A stretch of DNA of 64,000 nt from an uncultured Porphyromonadaceae bacterium (GTDB lineage Bacteria; Bacteroidota; Bacteroidia; Bacteroidales; Muribaculaceae), in contig CAMWIH010000001.1 of the NCBI GenBank assembly GCA_947174305.1, forward strand, positions 23,999 to 87,998, in the 5' to 3' direction. Shown in pieces: positions 1,743-41,239 of this stretch. The first letter of the stretch is position 1. Every line of letters starts with the position of its first letter. Position numbers and translations under genes: made by a program. Under the pieces are notes generated by a model, which saw nothing but the letters and a program-made list of their open reading frames with translations, was not told the origin of the DNA and made no database searches.

Positions 1743-3704
1743 TTAAGCATCGATATTTGCATACGTGGCATGAGTCTCAATGAAGTCGCGGCGCGGACCC
1801 ACCTCTTCGCCCATAAGGACATTGAATGTGCGGTCAGCCTCGGCTGCATTGGTGAGGGTCACTTGCTTGAGCATACGGTTCTCAGGATCCATGGTTGTCT
1901 CCCAAAGCTGTTCGGGATTCATCTCTCCAAGACCTTTGTAACGCTGCAGCACGAGACGGTTGCGTTCGCCATTGCATTTGTCATCCACGAAACGTTGAAC
2001 CTGCTGGTCGGTCCAGCAATATTCCTCCACATTCTTCTTGTTCTTCAGGGAACATTTATAGAGAGGTGGAGTGGCAATGTAGAGATAGCCATTCTCGATG
2101 ATCGGACGCATGCGGCGATAGAAGAAGGTCATCAGAAGGGTTGCGATATGCGCCCCATCCACATCGGCATCGGTCATTATGACTATCTTGTGATAGCGCA
2201 GCTTGGTCATGTTGGGTGCCTTCTCATCCTCTTCTGTGCCGATTGTTACGCCAAGAGCCTTGTAGATGTTTACAATCTCATCAGAGCTGAGCACTTTGCT
2301 GTCGTTTGCTTTCTCCACATTGAGGATTTTACCGCGAAGCGGGAGGATAGCCTGATAATGCGGGTTACGCCCCTGCTTGGCTGAACCGCCTGCAGAGTCT
2401 CCCTCGACGAGGAAAAGCTCACATTCCACTGCATCACGGCTCTTGCACGGTGCAAGTTTGCCGGGAAGTCCGGCGCCCGAGAATGAACTCTTGTTCTGCA
2501 CGCGCATACGTGCTGAATAGGCTGCGTGGCGTGCCTCGGCCGCGAGTTTCACTTTGTTGACAATGGTCTTTGCCTGATTGGGATGCTCTTCAAGATATAT
2601 GCGCAAGGCCTCGCTCACTGAACTTTGAACGGCACCGGCAACTTCGTTGTTTCCGAGCTTCGTCTTGGTCTGGCCCTCGAACTGTGGTTCGGCCACTTTT
2701 ACCGAAATCACGGCCGTGAGACCGTCGCGGAAGTCCTCTTTGGAGAGTTCAATCTTCATCTTGTCGAGCATTCCGTTGTCGTCGGCATACTTCTTGAGGG
2801 TGGTGGTTAGACCGCGGCGGAAACCGGTAAGGTGGGTTCCACCTTCAATAGTGTTGATATTGTTGACATAGGAATATATATTCTCGTTGAAGTCGGTGTT
2901 ATAAGTCATCGCCACCTCGATAGGCACTCCGTTCTTCTCGGTGTTGAGATGGATTATGTCTTCAATGAGGGGAGTTTTACCTTCGTCAATGTATTGCACG
3001 AACTCTTTCAGACCTTCGTCGCTATGGAATGTGTCGCTCTTTGGATTCCCCTCCTCGTCGAGCACACGCATATCGGTCAGTTTGAGCGTAATTCCGGCAT
3101 TCAGGAAGGCGAGGTCGCGCAGACGGTTGGCGAGGGTCTCGTAGTCATATATTGTTTCAGAGAATATGGTTGCATCCGGATGGAATATGATGGTTGTCCC
3201 TGTGTGGTCGGTCTCCCCTATTACGCTGAGTTCGCTTGTGGGCTTTCCGAAGGCATATTCCTGCATGTGTATCTTACCGTCGCGGTGAATCTCGGCCCTG
3301 AGATAATCGGAGAGCGCGTTCACACAGCTCACACCAACACCGTGCAAACCGCCGGATACCTTGTATGAACCTTTGTCGAATTTACCTCCGGCGTGAAGTA
3401 CCGTAAGCACTACTTCGAGAGCGGGCTTATGCATCTTTTCGTGCATGTCAACAGGGATTCCTCGGCCATTATCCACAACCTTTATCGAATTATTTTCGAG
3501 GATTGTGACCTCTATATGGTTGGCATATCCGGCAAGTGCCTCATCGATTGAGTTATCCACTACCTCATACACAAGATGGTGGAGACCGCGAACACCGGTG
3601 TCACCGATATACATCGAGGGACGTTTGCGAACAGCTTCCAGGCCTTCGAGCACCTGGATATTATCGGCTTGATATGATTTCTTATTCTCTTCTTCTATTG
3701 CCAT
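1743..3704 (-). CDS. gyrB: DNA gyrase subunit B
   Basis: 653 aa; LEGLEAVRKRP, EVVDNSIDE, HAGGKF, EGDSAGG, PLRGKILN, MTDADVDG and YKGLGEMN motifs. Confidence 0.97.
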   Translation of the reverse strand: MAIEEENKKSYQADNIQVLEGLEAVRKRPSMYIGDTGVRGLHHLVYEVVDNSIDEALAGYANHIEVTILENNSIKVVDNGRGIPVDMHEKMHKPALEVVLTVLHAGGKFDKGSYKVSGGLHGVGVSCVNALSDYLRAEIHRDGKIHMQEYAFGKPTSELSVIGETDHTGTTIIFHPDATIFSETIYDYETLANRLRDLAFLNAGITLKLTDMRVLDEEGNPKSDTFHSDEGLKEFVQYIDEGKTPLIEDIIHLNTEKNGVPIEVAMTYNTDFNENIYSYVNNINTIEGGTHLTGFRRGLTTTLKKYADDNGMLDKMKIELSKEDFRDGLTAVISVKVAEPQFEGQTKTKLGNNEVAGAVQSSVSEALRIYLEEHPNQAKTIVNKVKLAAEARHAAYSARMRVQNKSSFSGAGLPGKLAPCKSRDAVECELFLVEGDSAGGSAKQGRNPHYQAILPLRGKILNVEKANDSKVLSSDEIVNIYKALGVTIGTEEDEKAPNMTKLRYHKIVIMTDADVDGAHIATLLMTFFYRRMRPIIENGYLYIATPPLYKCSLKNKKNVEEYCWTDQQVQRFVDDKCNGERNRLVLQRYKGLGEMNPEQLWETTMDPENRMLKQVTLTNAAEADRTFNVLMGEEVGPRRDFIETHATYANIDA

Positions 3705-3780: not shown

Positions 3781-4059
3781 TTAAAATAAGTCGGAGTGGC
3801 TTCCTGTTCTTATTAATGATATTAATTTGATACCATCGTCCTTTTTATATATCAGAAGCCAGTCGGGAGAGATGTGACACTCCCTGCATCCTTTGTAATT
3901 GCTAATAAGTGAATGATCCCTGTTTTTTGGAGGCAAGGGAATATCATTAATCAGGAGCCTGATAATTTCATCAAGTTTAGAAAGGTCAAGATTCCGTTTG
4001 TATGCTAATTTGACATCGCGCAGATATTGACGGGTTGTTTCAATCCTGAAGGGTTTCAT
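3781..4059 (-). CDS. yafQ: Type II TA toxin, YafQ family mRNA interferase
   Basis: 92 aa, basic; RDHSL, RECHISPDWLLIY and C-terminal RTGSHSDLF, all characteristic of YafQ. Confidence 0.9.
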   Translation of the reverse strand: MKPFRIETTRQYLRDVKLAYKRNLDLSKLDEIIRLLINDIPLPPKNRDHSLISNYKGCRECHISPDWLLIYKKDDGIKLISLIRTGSHSDLF

Positions 4060-4364: not shown

Positions 4365-5630
4365 TTATTCCTCATATTTCTTCAGGATGAGGGCTGCGTT
4401 GTGGCCGCCGAATCCGAAGGTGTTGGAGAGTGCTGTCTTGATCTCTCTCTTTTTGGCGGTGTTGAAAGTGAAGTCGAGATTATAATCCACTTTCTCGTCG
4501 TTGTCGCCTTCCACGTGATTGATTGTGGGAGGAATCACGCCATCCTCGATAGCCTTTACGCTGAAAAGGGCTTCGAGAGCTCCGGTGGCACCGAGAAGGT
4601 GTCCTGTCATTGATTTTGTGGAGCTGAGGCTCATCTTGTAGGCATGGTCGCCGAATACTTCCTGAATGGCTTTTATCTCACCGATATCTCCTACAGGAGT
4701 TGAAGTTCCGTGAAGGTTTATGTAGTCGATGTCTTCAGGTTTCATTTCGGCATCCTTCAGGGCGTTCTCCATCACGAGCTTCGCACCGAGGCCTTCTGGA
4801 TGAGTGGCAGTGATATGGTATGCGTCAGCGCTCATGCCGCCGCCTGCAATTTCTGCATATATTTTTGCGCCGCGAGCCTTGGCGTGTTCAAGCTCTTCGA
4901 GCACGAGAGCGGCCGCGCCTTCACCGATCACGAAACCGTCGCGGGAGCCGGAGAAGGGACGCGATGCGGTCTTGGGGTCATCGTTACGTGTGGAGAGGGC
5001 TTTCATAGAGTTGAAACCACCCACACCGGCAGGGAATACAGCTGCTTCAGCACCTCCGGCGACAATAGCGTCTGCCTGGCCGAGACGGATGATGTTGAAA
5101 GCGTCAATAAGTGCGTTGGTTGAAGAAGCACATGCTGATACTGTGCCGAAGTTAGGACCGCGGAAACCATGATCGATAGAGATGTGTCCGGCCGCGATAT
5201 CCGCAATCATTTTGGGTATGAAGAAAGGGTTGTATTTAGGACCCTGCTCCTCACCGTGGAGAGCGAAATAGCCTGCTTCCTCCTCGAATGTGTGAAGTCC
5301 GCCGATTCCGGCTGCGAAGATCACACCTACACGGTTTTTGTCAATATTTTCGTTTTCAAGATCAGCATCTTCAATTGCCTCCTTGGCTGCCACGAGGGCA
5401 TACTGGGCATAAAGATCAAGCTGACGAAGTTTCTTGCGGTCGAAATGATCGGCACCATTAAAGTCCTTCACTTCACAGGCAAACTGTGTTTTGAACTTGC
5501 TGGCGTCGAAGTGAGTGATCGGGCCGGCGCCGCTTACGCCGTTGACTGCATTCTCCCATGCTGTCTTAACGTCGTTTCCTATCGGGGTCAGAGCGCCCAG
5601 ACCGGTTACTACAACTCTTTTTAATTCCAT
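4365..5630 (-). CDS. fabF: 3-oxoacyl-ACP synthase II
   Basis: 421 aa; RVVVTGLG, SACAS catalytic Cys, HGTST, KSMTGHLLGA and SNTFGFGGHN. Confidence 0.96.
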   Translation of the reverse strand: MELKRVVVTGLGALTPIGNDVKTAWENAVNGVSGAGPITHFDASKFKTQFACEVKDFNGADHFDRKKLRQLDLYAQYALVAAKEAIEDADLENENIDKNRVGVIFAAGIGGLHTFEEEAGYFALHGEEQGPKYNPFFIPKMIADIAAGHISIDHGFRGPNFGTVSACASSTNALIDAFNIIRLGQADAIVAGGAEAAVFPAGVGGFNSMKALSTRNDDPKTASRPFSGSRDGFVIGEGAAALVLEELEHAKARGAKIYAEIAGGGMSADAYHITATHPEGLGAKLVMENALKDAEMKPEDIDYINLHGTSTPVGDIGEIKAIQEVFGDHAYKMSLSSTKSMTGHLLGATGALEALFSVKAIEDGVIPPTINHVEGDNDEKVDYNLDFTFNTAKKREIKTALSNTFGFGGHNAALILKKYEE

Positions 5631-13768: not shown

Positions 13769-14442
13769 CCCTTTCTTCCGAAATCGGCCGGCACTTCTCC
13801 CCAGCGGTCAGTTTCCCACTTCAGTATCTTGGGATATTCTGTAGCCGGATGACTGTTAAGCCACGACAGGGCGCGCTCCATCATTCGGAAACATTTCTCA
13901 TTTTTTGAATTGCGCGTGAGCTGGGTCTTCACCTTCCTGTTTCTCACCCACGCCATTCCGGTTTTTGAGTCGCTATAGATGGTGTGACGTTCGCCGCTTT
14001 GATTCTGCAAGGCCAAAGCATGGACAATAGCTAAAAATTCCCCAATATTGTTGGTGGATTGCTCGAAGGGACCAACGCGGAAAATCTCTTTTCCTGTCAT
14101 AAGCTCCACTCCCCGATATTCCATTTTTCCGGGATTTCCCAGACAGGAGGCGTCAACCGCCCAGCCGTTGAGGTCGATTTCCTGAAACTGGAAATAGTCA
14201 GGCTGCCCGGCTTTCGGAAGATTGTGTTCGGAGGCACCGACAAGGAGTCCGCTCAATTCAGAGCGATCCTGCCTGCTCTCCCCTTTTCGGAAAGCGGCGG
14301 CCGCTTCGGCTGAGGTGGCATAGCTTTTGAACATGGCTCCAGGATAATCATCCACCTGTGCCATCGCGTCGTTGAAGTCGTCATACACTCCCGGCTCCCG
14401 GCCTTTCCAGACCACATAAAATCGCTTACTGTAATTTTTCAT
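13765..14442 (-). CDS. rnhA: Ribonuclease HI with N-terminal hybrid-binding (viroplasmin) domain
   Basis: FYVVWKGREPGVY N-terminal domain; AVDASC, TNNIGEFLAIVHAL, IYSDS and WGEVPADFGRK. The ATG at 14442 is preferred over the TTG at 14457. Confidence 0.9.
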   Translation of the reverse strand: MKNYSKRFYVVWKGREPGVYDDFNDAMAQVDDYPGAMFKSYATSAEAAAAFRKGESRQDRSELSGLLVGASEHNLPKAGQPDYFQFQEIDLNGWAVDASCLGNPGKMEYRGVELMTGKEIFRVGPFEQSTNNIGEFLAIVHALALQNQSGERHTIYSDSKTGMAWVRNRKVKTQLTRNSKNEKCFRMMERALSWLNSHPATEYPKILKWETDRWGEVPADFGRKG

Positions 14443-36484: not shown

Positions 36485-38359
36485 ATGGAACTGATCAAGC
36501 ATGAATGCGGAATAGCTATGATCCGCCTCCTCAAGCCTCTTTCCTATTATGAGGAGAAATATGGCACTGCGATGTATGGTCTTAACAAGCTCTATCTCAT
36601 TATGGAGAAGGAGCATAACCGTGGACAGGAGGCGGCTGGTGTAGGGGCTGTCAAGCTTGATGCCTCACCCGGACACGAATATATCTTCCGCGAACGTGCG
36701 CAAGGTTCTGATGCCATACAGGCCATCTTCGCTTCCATCGGTTCTCAGATTGAGGAAGCACGGCAAAGGGGGGAAGCTATGGAGGATATTCCCTTTATCG
36801 GGGAGGTGTATATGGGGCATCTGCGATACAGCACCACGGGACGTTCCGGAATGAGCTACGTGCATCCCTTCATGCGACGCAACAACTGGTCGGCGCGTAA
36901 TCTCCTTCTCTGCGGAAACTTCAATATGACCAATGTTGATGAGATTTTCGATCAGATCACGGCCGTTGGTCAGCATCCGCGCCTTTATGCCGACACTTTC
37001 CTTCTTCTCGAACAGCTGGGTCATGCCCTCGACCGGGAGAATGAACGTCTTTTCGAAATACATAATTCTGCAGGCTTGACCGGACTGGAGCGATCGGCCG
37101 CGATAGCGCGCGACCTTAATGTCTCCAATATCCTTCACCGTTGCTCTCCATCGTGGGACGGCGGCTACGTGATTTGCGGGATTGTTGGCAACGGTGACCT
37201 TTGGGCCATGCGCGACCCGAACGGAATCCGTCCCGCTTTCTATTACCGTGACGAGGAGATTGTGGTGGTGGCGAGTGAGCGTCCCGTGATTCAGACTGCG
37301 TTCCACCTTCAGGTTTCCGATGTAAAGGAGCTTCTTCCGGGTGAGGCGATTATAGTTGACCGCGATGGTTCGTCGCGAATAGAGCAGATTTTGCCTGCCG
37401 GTGCGAATAAACGCTGTTCTTTCGAGAGGATATATTTCTCCCGTGGCTCGGACAGGGATATATATAACGAGCGTAAGCAGTTAGGCAAGAACCTTGTGCC
37501 ACAGGTTTTGAAGGCTGTCAATAATGATATCGACAAGACGGTCATCTCTTTTATCCCCAACACTGCAGAGGTGGCATTTTATGGTCTCGTGGAAGGAATC
37601 GAGGAGAATCTTATAAAGAAAAAGATTGAAGAGATACAGAGGCTTTCCTCCATCGGAGCATTGACCGACGATAACATACGCGATGTACTTACCCACAGGG
37701 TGCGCAAGGAGAAGGTTGCAATCAAGGATATAAAGTTGCGCACCTTCATAGCCGAAGGTAACACCCGTAATGATCTGGCCGCCCATGTGTATGATATTAC
37801 ATACGGCTCGATAAATCCGGGAGATAATCTTGTGGCCATTGACGACAGCATTGTTCGTGGCACCACGCTGCGTGAATCGATTCTCCGCATTCTCGACCGC
37901 CTCTCACCCAGGAAGCTGATAATCGTTTCCTCATCGCCTCAGGTCCGTTATCCTGACTGTTATGGCATTGATATGAGCCGGATGTCGGAGTTTATAGCCT
38001 TCAAGGCGGCCATAGAGCTGCTTAGGGAGCGTGGGATGAGTTATGTGATTGATTCCGTGTATCACAAATGCAAGGCTCAGGAGAACCTTCCCAAAGAGGA
38101 ATGTATGAACTATGTCAAAGAGATATATGCTCCCTTCACAGATGAGGAGATAGCCGCCAAGATAGCGGAACTGTTACGCCCCGAGGGTATCAAATCGGAA
38201 GTGGAGATAGTATATCAGACAGTAGAGAATATGCACCGTGCCATACCGGATCATCCCGGCGACTGGTATTTTACCGGCGATTATCCCACCCCCGGTGGCA
38301 ACCGCCTTGTCTCCAAAGCCTTCATCAACTACTATGAAGGAAGGCACAATGCCCGATAG
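36485..38359 (+). CDS. purF: Amidophosphoribosyltransferase (long Bacteroidota type)
   Basis: HECGIA (Ntn Cys after a short propeptide), HNRGQE, GHLRYSTTG, RDPNGIRP, DDSIVRGTT and YGIDM. Confidence 0.93.
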   Translation: MELIKHECGIAMIRLLKPLSYYEEKYGTAMYGLNKLYLIMEKEHNRGQEAAGVGAVKLDASPGHEYIFRERAQGSDAIQAIFASIGSQIEEARQRGEAMEDIPFIGEVYMGHLRYSTTGRSGMSYVHPFMRRNNWSARNLLLCGNFNMTNVDEIFDQITAVGQHPRLYADTFLLLEQLGHALDRENERLFEIHNSAGLTGLERSAAIARDLNVSNILHRCSPSWDGGYVICGIVGNGDLWAMRDPNGIRPAFYYRDEEIVVVASERPVIQTAFHLQVSDVKELLPGEAIIVDRDGSSRIEQILPAGANKRCSFERIYFSRGSDRDIYNERKQLGKNLVPQVLKAVNNDIDKTVISFIPNTAEVAFYGLVEGIEENLIKKKIEEIQRLSSIGALTDDNIRDVLTHRVRKEKVAIKDIKLRTFIAEGNTRNDLAAHVYDITYGSINPGDNLVAIDDSIVRGTTLRESILRILDRLSPRKLIIVSSSPQVRYPDCYGIDMSRMSEFIAFKAAIELLRERGMSYVIDSVYHKCKAQENLPKEECMNYVKEIYAPFTDEEIAAKIAELLRPEGIKSEVEIVYQTVENMHRAIPDHPGDWYFTGDYPTPGGNRLVSKAFINYYEGRHNAR

Positions 38360-38384
38360 GACGAAATAATCAGTATTAGCAGAA

Positions 38385-39350
38385 TTATAGTTTAGCGATT
38401 GCTTCGGCTAATTTATTCATTCTTAAGCAAAGTTGGCGTGATAAGGGGGTCTTGGGTGGTTCTTTGAGTGAGATGATGAGAAGACGGCCGGAGGAACAAA
38501 GCTCAAAGTCGTGGGCTGACGGTTTGAATCGTTCGGGGAATGATTCGTGGGTTATAAGGATAATGCCGGCGTCTTTTTCCTCCGCTTTTCTGCGGATTTC
38601 CTTTTCTGCCCTTGATATGAATGGGGAAACCAAAACCGTTCCTTGTTCGGTGGCGGAAAGCCAAACTTCTTCCAACTTTTCCCGTTGTTCAGAAGAGAAA
38701 CGGCGACTGATTTTTACAGCCTCCTTGTCGGGGTTACGTAAGAGAAATAGATTGCCGTATGCTTCATATTCCCTATTATCTATAATGAGATTGCGTGTAC
38801 GTCTAAAGAAATGAGGGAACTGCTGGCGCATTGCAAGTCGATGAGGATTTTCACGGATATATGTGAAGAGTGTGTCAAGATTTCTTTTTAAAAGAAGGGG
38901 TTTGTCGCAATAACCCGGAAGAAATATATCCTGAGCCTCCAACATTTTCTCTTGTGTAGCTTGGAGAGTCTTGACATGGGTGTCGGTTATCTTTTTAACA
39001 AGATGGTCAATATAAAAATCCAGATGTTGTTCCGACCATTCTTTTACGCGTAGCAGAATATGCACATGATCCGGCATCACGATAAATTGATAAACTTGTA
39101 ATATTGGGAAAGTCTTTTGGATGCCTAAAATTGATTTGGCAATGATTTTTCCTAATCCGGACTCCTCGATAAAGGCACAACCCTTGTTCCCAGGAGCTAT
39201 TCTTGCATCGCCTTTTACCACGCCGAAAGGGATGCAATTTTCCTGTTTTTTCAGGATAATATGATAGATGAATGGGGCGTGATAATTATGCGCGAAAGCT
39301 CGTTGATGAAATCTGGGGAGAGCATGCCCTTCGCTATTTGAGTCTGTCAT
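38385..39350 (-). CDS. HUH/Y1 (RAYT / IS200-like) tyrosine nuclease-transposase fused to a DprA/SLOG-like C-terminal domain
   Basis: IYHIIL, VMPDHVHILL (HUH) and YIRENP (catalytic Tyr, RAYT-type NP); C-terminal half AYGNLFLL..VKISRR..VLVSPFIS..GRLLIIS..RMNKLA. Confidence 0.75.
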   Translation of the reverse strand: MTDSNSEGHALPRFHQRAFAHNYHAPFIYHIILKKQENCIPFGVVKGDARIAPGNKGCAFIEESGLGKIIAKSILGIQKTFPILQVYQFIVMPDHVHILLRVKEWSEQHLDFYIDHLVKKITDTHVKTLQATQEKMLEAQDIFLPGYCDKPLLLKRNLDTLFTYIRENPHRLAMRQQFPHFFRRTRNLIIDNREYEAYGNLFLLRNPDKEAVKISRRFSSEQREKLEEVWLSATEQGTVLVSPFISRAEKEIRRKAEEKDAGIILITHESFPERFKPSAHDFELCSSGRLLIISLKEPPKTPLSRQLCLRMNKLAEAIAKL

Positions 39351-39389
39351 AATAGGTATATTTATTTATGCCTAAAGAAAATAGTTAAA

Positions 39390-39522
39390 CACCCGGAGAC
39401 AAACGGCATCCGCATACCCGGAGAGAACCGGCATATGCTCACCCGGAGAGAACCGGCATATGCTCACCCGAAGACAAACGGCATCCGCACACCAGGAGAG
39501 AAAAGACACCCAAAGACAAACA
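39390..39522. repeat. 25-bp tandem REP-like array (A-B-B-A' plus two partial units)
   Basis: Units at 39390 CACCCGGAGACAAACGGCATCCGCA, 39415 TACCCGGAGAGAACCGGCATATGCT, 39440 CACCCGGAGAGAACCGGCATATGCT and 39465 CACCCGAAGACAAACGGCATCCGCA; partial units at 39490 and 39507. Confidence 0.92.
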
Positions 39523-39568
39523 CAAGTTTAATGAAATATCAAAATAGAATTATGTTTGTCTTTGGGTG
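39507..39568. repeat. Perfect 16-bp inverted repeat with 30-nt spacer (REPIN-like)
   Basis: CACCCAAAGACAAACA (39507-39522) and TGTTTGTCTTTGGGTG (39553-39568). Confidence 0.88.
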
Positions 39569-39578
39569 ATTTGGTCGT

Positions 39579-39626
39579 AGGAGTTCAATCTTTAAGGAGC
39601 TCAATCTTTAAGGAGCTCAGTCATTA
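39579..39626. repeat. Three 16-bp tandem repeats
   Basis: AGGAGTTCAATCTTTA / AGGAGCTCAATCTTTA / AGGAGCTCAGTCATTA; a degenerate copy lies near 39680-39694. Confidence 0.85.
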
Positions 39627-39712
39627 AAGCTAATCTTCCTTGATAGCTCAGCCGTTCCATTAGGGGTTGGCCTTCCTCCAAGGCTCAGTCTTTAGAAGTC
39701 TGGGCTAAGATT

Positions 39713-41239
39713 TTACTCCCATTCGATTGTTGCTGGTGGCTTGGATGAGATATCATAGACTACGCGGTTGATGCCACGCACTTTGTTGATGATCTCGTTG
39801 CTGGTTTTGGCAAGGAATTCGTAAGGGAGGTGTACCCAGTCGGCTGTCATTCCGTCGGTGGAGATGACGGCGCGGAGGGCAACACAGCTTTCGTAGGTGC
39901 GTTCATCGCCCATCACTCCCACACTCTGAACGGGCAAAAGCATTACGCCGGCTTGCCATACCTGGTCGTAAAGTCCTGCTTCGCGCAGGCCGTTGATGAA
40001 GATTGCATCGGCTTCCTGAAGGATGCGCACTTTCTCCGGTGTAACTTCTCCAAGAATGCGGATTCCAAGACCCGGTCCGGGGAAGGGATGACGGCCCAAC
40101 AGACGCGGATCCATATCCATTGCTTTCCCCACACGGCGAACCTCATCTTTGAAAAGAAGGCGAAGTGGCTCTACAATCTTGAGATTCATCTCTTTGGGGA
40201 GGCCACCCACATTGTGGTGACTCTTGATGGTGGCAGAGGGCCCTTTGACTGAACAACTTTCAATCACGTCGGGATAGATTGTGCCTTGAGCAAGCCATTT
40301 TGCATTCTCAATCTTCTTAGCTTCCGCATTGAAAACTTCCACGAAATCACGACCGATGATCTTACGTTTCTGCTCGGGATCTGTGACACCCTTGAGATCG
40401 TTGTAGAAACGTTCTGAGGCATCAACACCGATAACGTTCAGACCCATCCCCTTGTAGGAGTCTAAAACATCGTCAAATTCATTCTTTCGCAGAAGCCCGT
40501 TGTTTACGAATATACATGTGAGCTTGTCGCCTATTGCTTTGTGAAGCAACATGGCGGCAACGGAGGAATCAACACCTCCGGATAGCCCGAGAATCACGCG
40601 TTCATCCCCTATCTTCTCCTTAAGCTCAGCTACGGTTGTCTCTATGAATGAGGCCGGGCTCCATGTGCCGGAGCAACCGCAGATGCCGAGAACATAGTTA
40701 GCGAGAAGTTGCTTCCCGTCGGTGGAATGATACACCTCGGGGTGGAACTGGATTCCCCATGTCTGCTCACCTTTGATATGATAGGCGGCATATTTTACAT
40801 TCTCAGTCGAACCGATAACTTTATAGTTCTCAGGTACGTCGGTGATTGTGTCGCCATGGCTCATCCATACCTGAGTGGGAGAAGGGAGGCCTTTCATGAG
40901 AGCATCCGCAGGATCCACCACTGTCAGCATTGCGCGTCCGTATTCGCGGGAGGGAGCGCCCTCTACATGACCGCCGTATGCGTATGCTAAGTACTGAGCG
41001 CCATAGCACACACCGAGCAGCGGGAGCTTTCCCTTAATATTGCTCAGATCGGGCACCGGTGCCTCCTCATCGCGCACCGAGGATGGAGATCCCGATAGAA
41101 TCACGCCCTTTGTATCGGCATCGATCTCCGGAATCTTATTGAAAGGATGAATCTCGCAATATACATTTAGCTCACGCACTCGGCGTGCGATCAGCTGGGT
41201 ATATTGTGATCCGAAATCTAATATTAATATCTTTTCCAT
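39713..41239 (-). CDS. guaA: GMP synthase (glutamine-hydrolysing)
   Basis: [43 protein letters not shown] and KPPATIEWE. Confidence 0.97.

Follow-up and report, generated by a model that had tools for sequence, protein, structure and literature searches.

A RAYT-like HUH nuclease with a DprA-like C-terminal domain and REPIN-like upstream repeats in Muribaculaceae

A 64,000-nucleotide (nt) stretch of DNA (hereafter the window; assembly GCA_947174305.1, contig CAMWIH010000001.1, positions 23,999 to 87,998) from a mouse-gut-type Muribaculaceae bacterium carries, between purF and guaA, a gene whose product joins a Y1 HUH nuclease domain to a Rossmann domain of the DprA type. With a probability of roughly 60%, we regard this fusion protein as a RAYT-like (class 2 TnpA_Y1) nuclease/ligase of single-stranded DNA (ssDNA) that has gained a truncated DprA-type domain and has cognate REP/REPIN-like repeats. 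The two folds, intact HUH and tyrosine motifs, an upstream hairpin that co-varies between loci, an amplified hairpin arm and orphan copies elsewhere were all observed. A first-pass annotation, made from the sequence alone, had called the gene a RAYT-like HUH nuclease fused to a DprA/SLOG-like domain, and this two-domain call was correct according to Foldseek on both halves and VIA-align on the C-terminal half. The gene and its domains are located as follows (positions are those of the window):

38385..39350, minus strand: fusion gene (P0001), stop codon included, 321 amino acids (aa) from an ATG start (open reading frame list and translation)
38817..39350, minus strand: Y1 HUH nuclease domain, residues 1 to ~178 (Pfam, NCBIfam, Foldseek, invariant catalytic residues)
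39060-39068, minus strand: HUH motif H95-V96-H97 (translation)
38844-38861, minus strand: predicted catalytic Tyr164 in Y-I-R-E-N-P (translation)
38388..38813, minus strand: DprA-like (SLOG superfamily) Rossmann domain, residues 180-321, 142 aa (AlphaFold2 (AF2), Foldseek, VIA-align, PDB profile search)

The reading frame is intact, open over all 321 aa from the ATG, and the ten motifs originally listed for it occur in the translation in the order given: YHI (29-31), MPDHVH (92-97) and YIRENP (164-169) in the N-terminal part, and AYGNLFLL (197-204), AVKISRR (211-217), TVLVSPFISRAEK (238-250), IILIT (263-267), FKP (275-277), GRLLIIS (288-294) and RMNKLAEAIA (310-319) in the C-terminal part. Fourteen residues are invariant among 34 homologues of 58-92% identity (H95, H97, Y164, N168, P169, G199, N200, S242, P243, F244, E249, C308, M311 and N312), and 248 of 271 proteins from the family and its near relatives, with representatives down to ~31% identity, retain both P[DN]HxH and YxxxNP; the motifs are therefore not due to chance. 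Modeling of the full-length protein with AF2 gave a pLDDT of 85.8 (34-sequence alignment). A phmmer search of the whole protein against PDB sequences returned a chance match to phaseolin only, and complex prediction with two full-length copies scored 0.00, which weighs neither way.

The N-terminal domain matched Pfam Y1_Tnp (PF01797) with 21.2 bits over residues 84-167 (gathering cut-off 23), with 22.8 bits in a six-frame search and with 23.2 bits when neighbors were included. A 64% identical paralogue in the same genome scored 25.3 bits, and many homologues carry a precomputed PF01797 match. The NCBIfam RAYT equivalog REP_Tyr_transpos (NF047646) gave 32.4 bits against a cut-off of 80. Foldseek with the full-length model retrieved the TnpA proteins of IS200, ISDra2 and IS608 together with the E. 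coli RAYT (4er8), at E 1.6e-5 to 4e-4 and a probability of 1.0; the best superposition among the top matches was to 4er8 (root-mean-square deviation (rmsd) 3.0 over 157 columns). Class 2 (TnpA_REP-like) enzymes are marked by the tyrosine motif Y-x-x-x-N-P, and IS200 transposases by Y---Q (Quentin et al. 2018, PMC6006769). The fusion protein has the class 2 form, YIRENP.

Folded alone, the C-terminal domain was predicted with a pLDDT of 95.7 and a pTM of 0.90 (AF2, 77-sequence alignment), and the comparison of this model with DprA/SLOG structures, which the first-pass annotation had put forward as a check, revealed a Rossmann fold with DprA and ShosA as the top matches. The first 14 Foldseek matches in the PDB were all DprA or ShosA (H. 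pylori 4ljr/4ljk/4ljl/5mll, S. pneumoniae 3uqz, R. palustris 3maj and ShosA 8zva), with E values of 1e-4 to 3e-3 and TM scores by query of 0.58-0.67; the next match had an E value of 0.056. VIA-align, which is independent of Foldseek and covered 48,161 representative chains, ranked ShosA first (Z 12.1), then DprA (Z 9.7, 9.6 and 8.5), then the SLOG members YvdD (LOG-like) and MCP (Z 5.4), with LOG-type structures reaching only Z 4.7-5.4. A profile of the domain searched against PDB sequences placed four DprA entries on top, at E values (0.03-0.05) that alone are not significant. Its register sets GNlfLL on GNLDLL, VrvSR on VVGSR/IIGTR and VSPFis..E on VSGLAKGID of the pneumococcal and H. pylori proteins; this alignment bears out, over the first half of the domain, the motif-by-motif mapping onto the DprA core that had been proposed. 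Further along, the DprA signature F/L/Y-x-x-R-N/D is probably matched by C308-L-x-M311-N312 in the last helix, judging from motif order and the range of the VIA-align superposition.

These correspondences touch the ssDNA pocket of H. pylori DprA (HpDprA), which is formed by Arg52, Arg143 and Asn144 (PMC3950713). Arg52 is the switch of that pocket, and the R52E substitution lowers affinity ~315-fold (PMC3950713). In the HMM alignment the family motif [IV]-S-R falls on HpDprA G50-T51-R52, with S-R on Thr51-Arg52 and Arg216 at the Arg52 position; the arginine has only majority (at least 50%) conservation in a diverse set. In the C-L-x-M-N of the last helix the asparagine is kept (at least 90%), the Arg143 equivalent is methionine and the Phe140 equivalent is cysteine. 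VIA-align superposed the model on HpDprA chain residues 9-153 only, so that the domain covers roughly the initial three-quarters of the DprA Rossmann fold, without its final strands (about the first 150 of ~205 residues). A Pfam search found no match of the fusion protein to PF02481 at E<=10, and hhalign of the domain alignment against 26 Muribaculaceae DprA proteins gave nothing meaningful (Prob 1.6%), which limits sequence-profile support for DprA homology to the PDB hmmsearch. The position of the glycine-rich phosphate loop of SLOG proteins (GGGxGxMG or PGGxGTxxE type) is occupied by the glycine-free V-S-P-F-I-S. Because of these two null searches and the altered loop, we describe the domain as DprA-like by fold and not as a member of the DprA family. 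A canonical dprA is present elsewhere in the genome (237 bits). An ESM Atlas feature search with the domain returned unnamed clusters only, below 0.9, and an Atlas fold search returned the domain's own family plus forms of 167-177 aa. Searching its profile against proteins of 78-294 aa found shorter or partial family members only and no other architecture.

The structural ranking raises the question of a defense-type or nucleotide-gated nuclease, in which the SLOG-like domain would sense a nucleotide, as in ThsA, or act as a ShosA-like antitoxin. ShosA is the best structural match (Foldseek E 5e-4), and the SLOG domains of ThsA are reported in the literature to bind cyclic ADPR isomers; however, neither the protein nor its C-terminal domain matched the PADLOC defense library (PHROGs also gave no match), no toxin or sensor partner accompanies the gene, whose neighbors are purF and guaA here and comM elsewhere, the loop that holds phosphate in SLOG proteins reads S-P-F-I-S, and the co-evolving DNA repeats described below would be left unexplained. 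We consider this explanation very unlikely, and the nucleotide-gated nuclease offered as one option by the first-pass annotation is thus not supported.

Upstream of the gene lie the repeats that connect it with REP/REPIN systems. That repeats occupy 39390-39568 had been noted at the outset, and they are real: a 25-nt unit repeated 4.6 times and an inverted repeat with a perfect 16-nt core. The features, to which no strand is assigned, are:

39505..39570: inverted repeat, REPIN-like hairpin (repeat finder, ssDNA fold, conservation)
39507-39522 and 39553-39568: hairpin arms CACCCAAAGACAAACA and TGTTTGTCTTTGGGTG, perfect over 16 nt, with a 30-nt AT-rich loop between them
39390..39506: 25-nt tandem array, 4.6 copies, 40-160 nt upstream of the start codon (repeat finder)

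As ssDNA the inverted repeat forms a 19-bp stem with a z-score of -5.9 on either strand. Each unit of the tandem array opens with a variant of the arm, CACCCRRAGA[CG]AAMC, which identifies the array as an amplification of that hairpin arm; the array itself folds no better than shuffled sequence (z -1.5 as ssDNA). The arms are conserved in the loci of two orthologues (L058, 92% identity; L061, 76%), where the loop and the rest of the spacer differ. In the 76% orthologue the loop of the inverted repeat is ~130 nt long and holds an unrelated 43-nt unit repeated 2.7 times (L061:3804-3920). Each of these 43-nt units contains a GC-rich, terminator-like palindrome, AAAAGCGGCCGGCTTTT.

When homologues were collected and their flanks searched, associated repeats were found. 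In five of the 40 homologue loci the gene is preceded by CACC-N3-5-GACAAAC and then GTTTGTC-N3-5-GGTG, and these five are precisely the closest relatives, a clade of 54-100% identity: the query (L001), its 64% paralogue (L002) and three loci of 57-58% identity from three other genera (L018, L019 and L020). The middles of the arms are exact complements in two cases (CCAAA/TTTGG and CCGGA/TCCGG) and show one or two mismatches in three (TTAC/GCGA, TGC/GGA and TACC/GAGA), and the arms are spaced by 23 to ~135 nt. More distant clades have other repeats, such as the units containing GCTGAAGC in L028, L034, L030 and L031, and roughly one in four of the 40 loci has strong tandem repeats in the 400 nt upstream of the gene. 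Arms that differ from locus to locus yet remain complementary, or nearly so, within each, together with the other repeats of distant clades, indicate that protein and repeat co-evolve. No DNA motif was universal by k-mer enrichment upstream of the 40 loci, where the enriched words came mainly from the 3' end of comM. The arms start with CACC and end with GACAAAC and carry no GTAG/CGTC tag of the kind seen in classical REP sequences, and no palindromic repeat was found on the 3' side of the gene, where 25 nt separate its stop from purF. In one 33% homologue (L044, oriented copy) a composite repeat field lies downstream of the gene and not upstream of it, at 2413-3031, with periods of 28, 38, 69 and 97 nt and units rich in CCGCGG palindromes.

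Copies of the motif also occur away from the gene. In the query genome assembly (88% complete, 225 contigs), exact 15-mers of the iteron (the array unit) were found at four other sites, C1:4118, C1:4964, C2:48 and C101:28, where ~0.005 would be expected each; all four are intergenic or at contig ends and are single or double direct copies. The 15-mers at G000:C1:4118-4132 and 4964-4978 lie on the same strand and bracket a gene of ~800 bp, which could be coincidence; by eye, the first residues of this gene resemble a SpoU/TrmH-type methyltransferase. The upstream repeat units of two other paralogues (L003, with a 44-nt unit, and L004) were not found elsewhere in the query genome. Across 201 Muribaculaceae genomes the degenerate motif was present mostly in fewer than 10 copies, similar to a reversed-pattern control. 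The outliers, G665 with 38 copies and G671 with 22, are both among the five genomes that carry the query protein clade and belong to different genera.

G665 has, among its orphan copies, direct arrays and a hairpin whose 29-bp stem is perfectly paired (z -13). A ribD-like gene of that genome (L065, G665:C9:160150-160650) contains three copies of the arm GTTTGTCGRAGGTG ~51-54 nt apart, through which the frame stays open, so that the copies add repeated peptide units of the type TPxSGLSEV. In at least four G665 rRNA operons (L067-L070, on C12, C13, C25 and C26), the 5S rRNA gene is followed at a distance of ~150-250 nt by CACCCGGAGACAAAC and a second variant; these copies adjoin another short tandem repeat, GCATCGCATCAATCACCCGCAA. 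Such dispersal resembles the behavior of a REP/REPIN element at low to moderate copy number.

The same repeats could be read as binding sites. A domesticated regulator would cut nothing and would bind double-stranded iterons and the inverted repeat in its own promoter region as well as the few orphan sites, acting as an autoregulator or a local transcription factor, an arrangement that suits the placement of array and hairpin 40-220 nt upstream of the start codon, the intergenic, single or double direct orphan copies near gene starts in the query genome, and an iteron array that does not fold as ssDNA (z -1.5). A pure binder, however, needs neither the HUH motif nor the tyrosine, which close homologues have without exception and 248 of 271 proteins retain; arm spacings of 23 to ~135 nt are awkward for a dimeric operator; and the 29-bp-stem orphan hairpin and in-frame ribD copies of G665 resemble the spread of an element and not a regulon. 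On this evidence a regulator is unlikely.

The fusion family is large. A word-indexed search returned 793 homologues, nearly all full-length and 300-350 aa long, labeled, where named, "transposase" or "hypothetical protein" and coming from Muribaculaceae. An exhaustive search gave 1,424 clusters (50% identity) at E<=1e-3 and 877 at E<=1e-10, mostly spanning both domains. Among Muribaculaceae, 46 of 201 species carry the gene; a set of 300 genomes from across the order yielded it in five, and it was not found in 300 other Bacteroidota genomes. The family is therefore almost confined to Muribaculaceae and patchy within it. Muribaculaceae genomes hold 0-6 matches each, with several copies broken by stops or fragmented, and the query genome holds four copies, at 100, 64, 40 and 25% identity. 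The gene is co-directional with guaB and guaA (guaA at 39713-41239, minus strand) and faces purF (36485-38359, plus strand) across a stop-to-stop gap of 25 nt, and both orthologues of 92% and 76% identity keep the order guaB-guaA-gene-purF. Low copy number, divergent paralogues, patchiness and local synteny together make up the profile of a RAYT-type gene and not of an insertion sequence, and under the RAYT-like interpretation the fusion gene resides in the chromosome and relocates slowly. When the 1.5 kb that follow guaA were compared in 11 congeneric genomes, neither the fusion gene nor purF was present there, and DNA similarity ended at the guaA stop.

A different origin of this pattern would be an autonomous mobile element, with gene and upstream hairpin forming an atypical IS200-like or TIRYT-like transposon that moves itself. 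The patchy occurrence, the 0-6 copies per genome, the broken copies and a tree (below) that has the query copy relocated to guaA/purF would all be in keeping with it. We nevertheless hold it improbable: copies within the genome are only 25-64% identical, with none near-identical; no hairpin or repeat lies on the 3' side, where the stop is 25 nt from purF; orthologues as distant as 76% identity keep the position; and the enzyme has Y---NP instead of the Y---Q of IS200 and no tnpB. The open reading frame list of the window shows no tnpB next to the gene, confirming the initial description of its surroundings between purF and guaA, and IS-type ends, likewise described as missing, are absent in that there is neither a 3' hairpin nor a pair of left and right subterminal hairpins around the gene.

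Gene context in other genomes points to comM/yifB (domains Mg_chelatase, ChlI and Mg_chelatase_C), which lies 106-450 nt upstream of the fusion gene and co-directional with it in 12 of the 40 loci. The 64% paralogue of the query genome sits 1.4 kb downstream of comM, with a rhuM gene between. In a maximum-likelihood tree all comM-linked copies fall into one clade (support 100/97) that includes the query, and they are spread through it; the simplest reading of this spread is an ancestral site after comM and later relocations, one of which gave the guaA/purF copy. Given the DprA-like domain, the link with comM is suggestive, and it is explained by descent; we do not take it as evidence of joint function. 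A recombination or competence accessory that acts with ComM, RecA or DprA on incoming or gapped ssDNA, leaving the repeats as by-products, would fit both the comM linkage and the DprA-like fold, yet it appears distinctly unlikely: with all linked copies in one clade the linkage can be inherited position alone, the query copy lies away from comM in a genome with a canonical dprA elsewhere, and the gene is absent from most Muribaculaceae, though comM-type genes are in all of them, judging from the loci seen.

Taken as a RAYT-like enzyme with cognate repeats, the fusion protein suggests a mechanism. The HUH domain would recognize the CACC-N3-5-GACAAAC / GTTTGTC-N3-5-GGTG hairpin on ssDNA, for example on the lagging-strand template, and would cut and rejoin beside it through a 5'-phosphotyrosine at Tyr164, as the E. 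coli RAYT and IS608 TnpA do. The DprA-like domain may hold the flanking ssDNA non-specifically (Arg216 corresponding to Arg52, Asn312 probably to Asn144), and it may also dimerize or contact a host protein. Repeated cutting and joining on its own hairpin could then have produced the 25-bp array and seeded the orphan copies. An ssDNA chaperone role had been suggested for the C-terminal domain; the domain might have such a role, and it might load RecA. A more far-reaching version, in which the fusion couples hairpin-guided ssDNA nicking to a DprA-style hand-off of the strand to RecA, possibly with ComM, and so serves as a site-specific recombination initiator, seems doubtful; if true, it would explain the tandem expansion of the arm, the in-frame gene arrays and slow relocation without IS-like copies.

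Several points weigh against the RAYT-like interpretation. The repeats have no GTAG/CGTC tag, flank the gene on a single side and occur in low number in the query genome, and two further genomes that carry the clade, G700 and G642, have no motif excess beyond the gene's own locus. With its position 40-160 nt ahead of the start codon, the array could just as well serve as an operator. The protein scores under both the Pfam and the NCBIfam RAYT cut-offs (21.2 versus 23 and 32.4 versus 80). Support for DprA homology from sequence alone is weak, and in the C-terminal domain Arg143 is replaced by Met and Phe140 by Cys, with the last third of the DprA domain absent. Finally, the mechanism is carried over, for every family member, from structures and biochemistry of IS608 and the E. 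coli RAYT.

Other features of the region stand apart from the hairpin motif. Between guaA and the hairpin lies a second tandem array, unrelated to it:

39579..39700, no strand assigned: second tandem array, 16-nt unit AGGAGCTCAATCTTTA x3.1 at 39579-39626, degenerating towards the guaA stop (repeat finder)

At the corresponding position the 92% orthologue has a related array of 18/35 nt (L058:3595-3726), and the 76% orthologue has none. Rfam searches of 38300-39800 gave sub-threshold, miRNA-like matches to the hairpin only. A scan for sigma-70 promoters and terminators, which does not cover Bacteroidota promoters, found no excess over shuffled sequence.

Elsewhere in the query genome, the rhuM-family gene between comM and the 64% paralogue (Virulence_RhuM, 355 bits; L002:2748-3743, minus strand) is flanked by 62-nt direct repeats that are 97% identical (L002:2684-2745 and 3805-3866; G000:C1:13056-13117 and 14177-14238), and gene and duplicated ends together look like a small insertion. 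A separate, shorter Y1_Tnp gene (G000:C5:582-770, 39.3 bits, in a 223-aa open frame) falls outside the fusion family, and the genome thus also has a conventional RAYT/IS200-like gene.

No domesticated transposase that coexists with non-autonomous repeats of its own is better studied than RAYT/REPIN pairs, whose function continues to be a matter of debate. To our knowledge, these systems are known almost only from Proteobacteria and Cyanobacteria. The present family may add a large group in a dominant mammalian-gut lineage that follows the RAYT/REPIN logic with another protein design, a nuclease joined to a DprA-type, putatively ssDNA-binding module. It would offer a natural experiment on the accessory function required by a REP nuclease, for example a grip on ssDNA or access to RecA or to the replication fork, and it suggests where the short tandem arrays and in-frame peptide repeats of Muribaculaceae genes may come from. 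Since the cognate site is short (two arms of 15-16 nt), the system is directly testable with oligonucleotides. For annotation, genes of this family now labeled "transposase" or "hypothetical" should not be counted as insertion sequences.

Among known systems, the closest is RAYT/TnpA_REP (E. coli YafM, 4er8). Both share the Y1 HUH fold and Y-x-x-x-N-P, low copy number, low intragenomic identity and patchy distribution, and an adjacent co-evolving cognate palindrome with orphan copies elsewhere, some of them inverted doublets. The fusion protein differs in its 142-aa DprA-like C-terminal domain, in a repeat head (CACC..GACAAAC) that has no GTAG/CGTC, stands on the 5' side only and is partly a 25-bp tandem array, in a score far below the NCBIfam equivalog cut-off, and in its hosts, which are Muribaculaceae and a few other Bacteroidales. 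The C-terminal extras published for TnpA_Y1 proteins are of the HTH/DnaA_C type, with some unassigned, and neither a DprA nor a Rossmann domain is mentioned (PMC6006769). IS200/IS605 TnpA proteins (IS608, ISDra2) share the HUH/Y1 fold and, presumably, hairpin-guided ssDNA chemistry; unlike them, the fusion family has Y---NP and not Y---Q, no near-identical copies, no tnpB and no bracketing left and right subterminal hairpins.

On the C-terminal side, DprA/Smf (PF02481; 4ljr/5mll, 3uqz) has in common a Rossmann-type fold (Z 8.5-9.7, 19-23% identity over ~130 residues), the motif order, S-R on the G-S/T/A-R loop (Arg52), an acidic residue at the GID position and an asparagine in the last helix that is probably Asn144; the fusion domain differs in having no SAM or winged-helix domain and no Pfam match, in the loss of the glycine-rich loop and in its attachment to a nuclease. 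ShosA (8zva), the DprA-like antitoxin of ShosTA, is the structure that the domain matches best (Z 12.1, rmsd 3.2 over 132 residues), but identity is 14%, and the fusion gene has no ShosT-like phosphoribosyltransferase partner, no PADLOC match and another gene context. From the SLOG nucleotide sensors (LOG, ThsA) the domain is set apart by the missing glycine-rich phosphate loops. Full-text literature searches on HUH with DprA or SLOG, and on RAYT with Bacteroides and a C-terminal domain, found no description of the fusion; the first-pass proposal of an undescribed system thus applies to the protein design, while the system itself belongs to the known REP/RAYT kind. In our reading it is a RAYT-like system of a new subclass, whose accessory domain is new and whose repeats are atypical and in part tandem.

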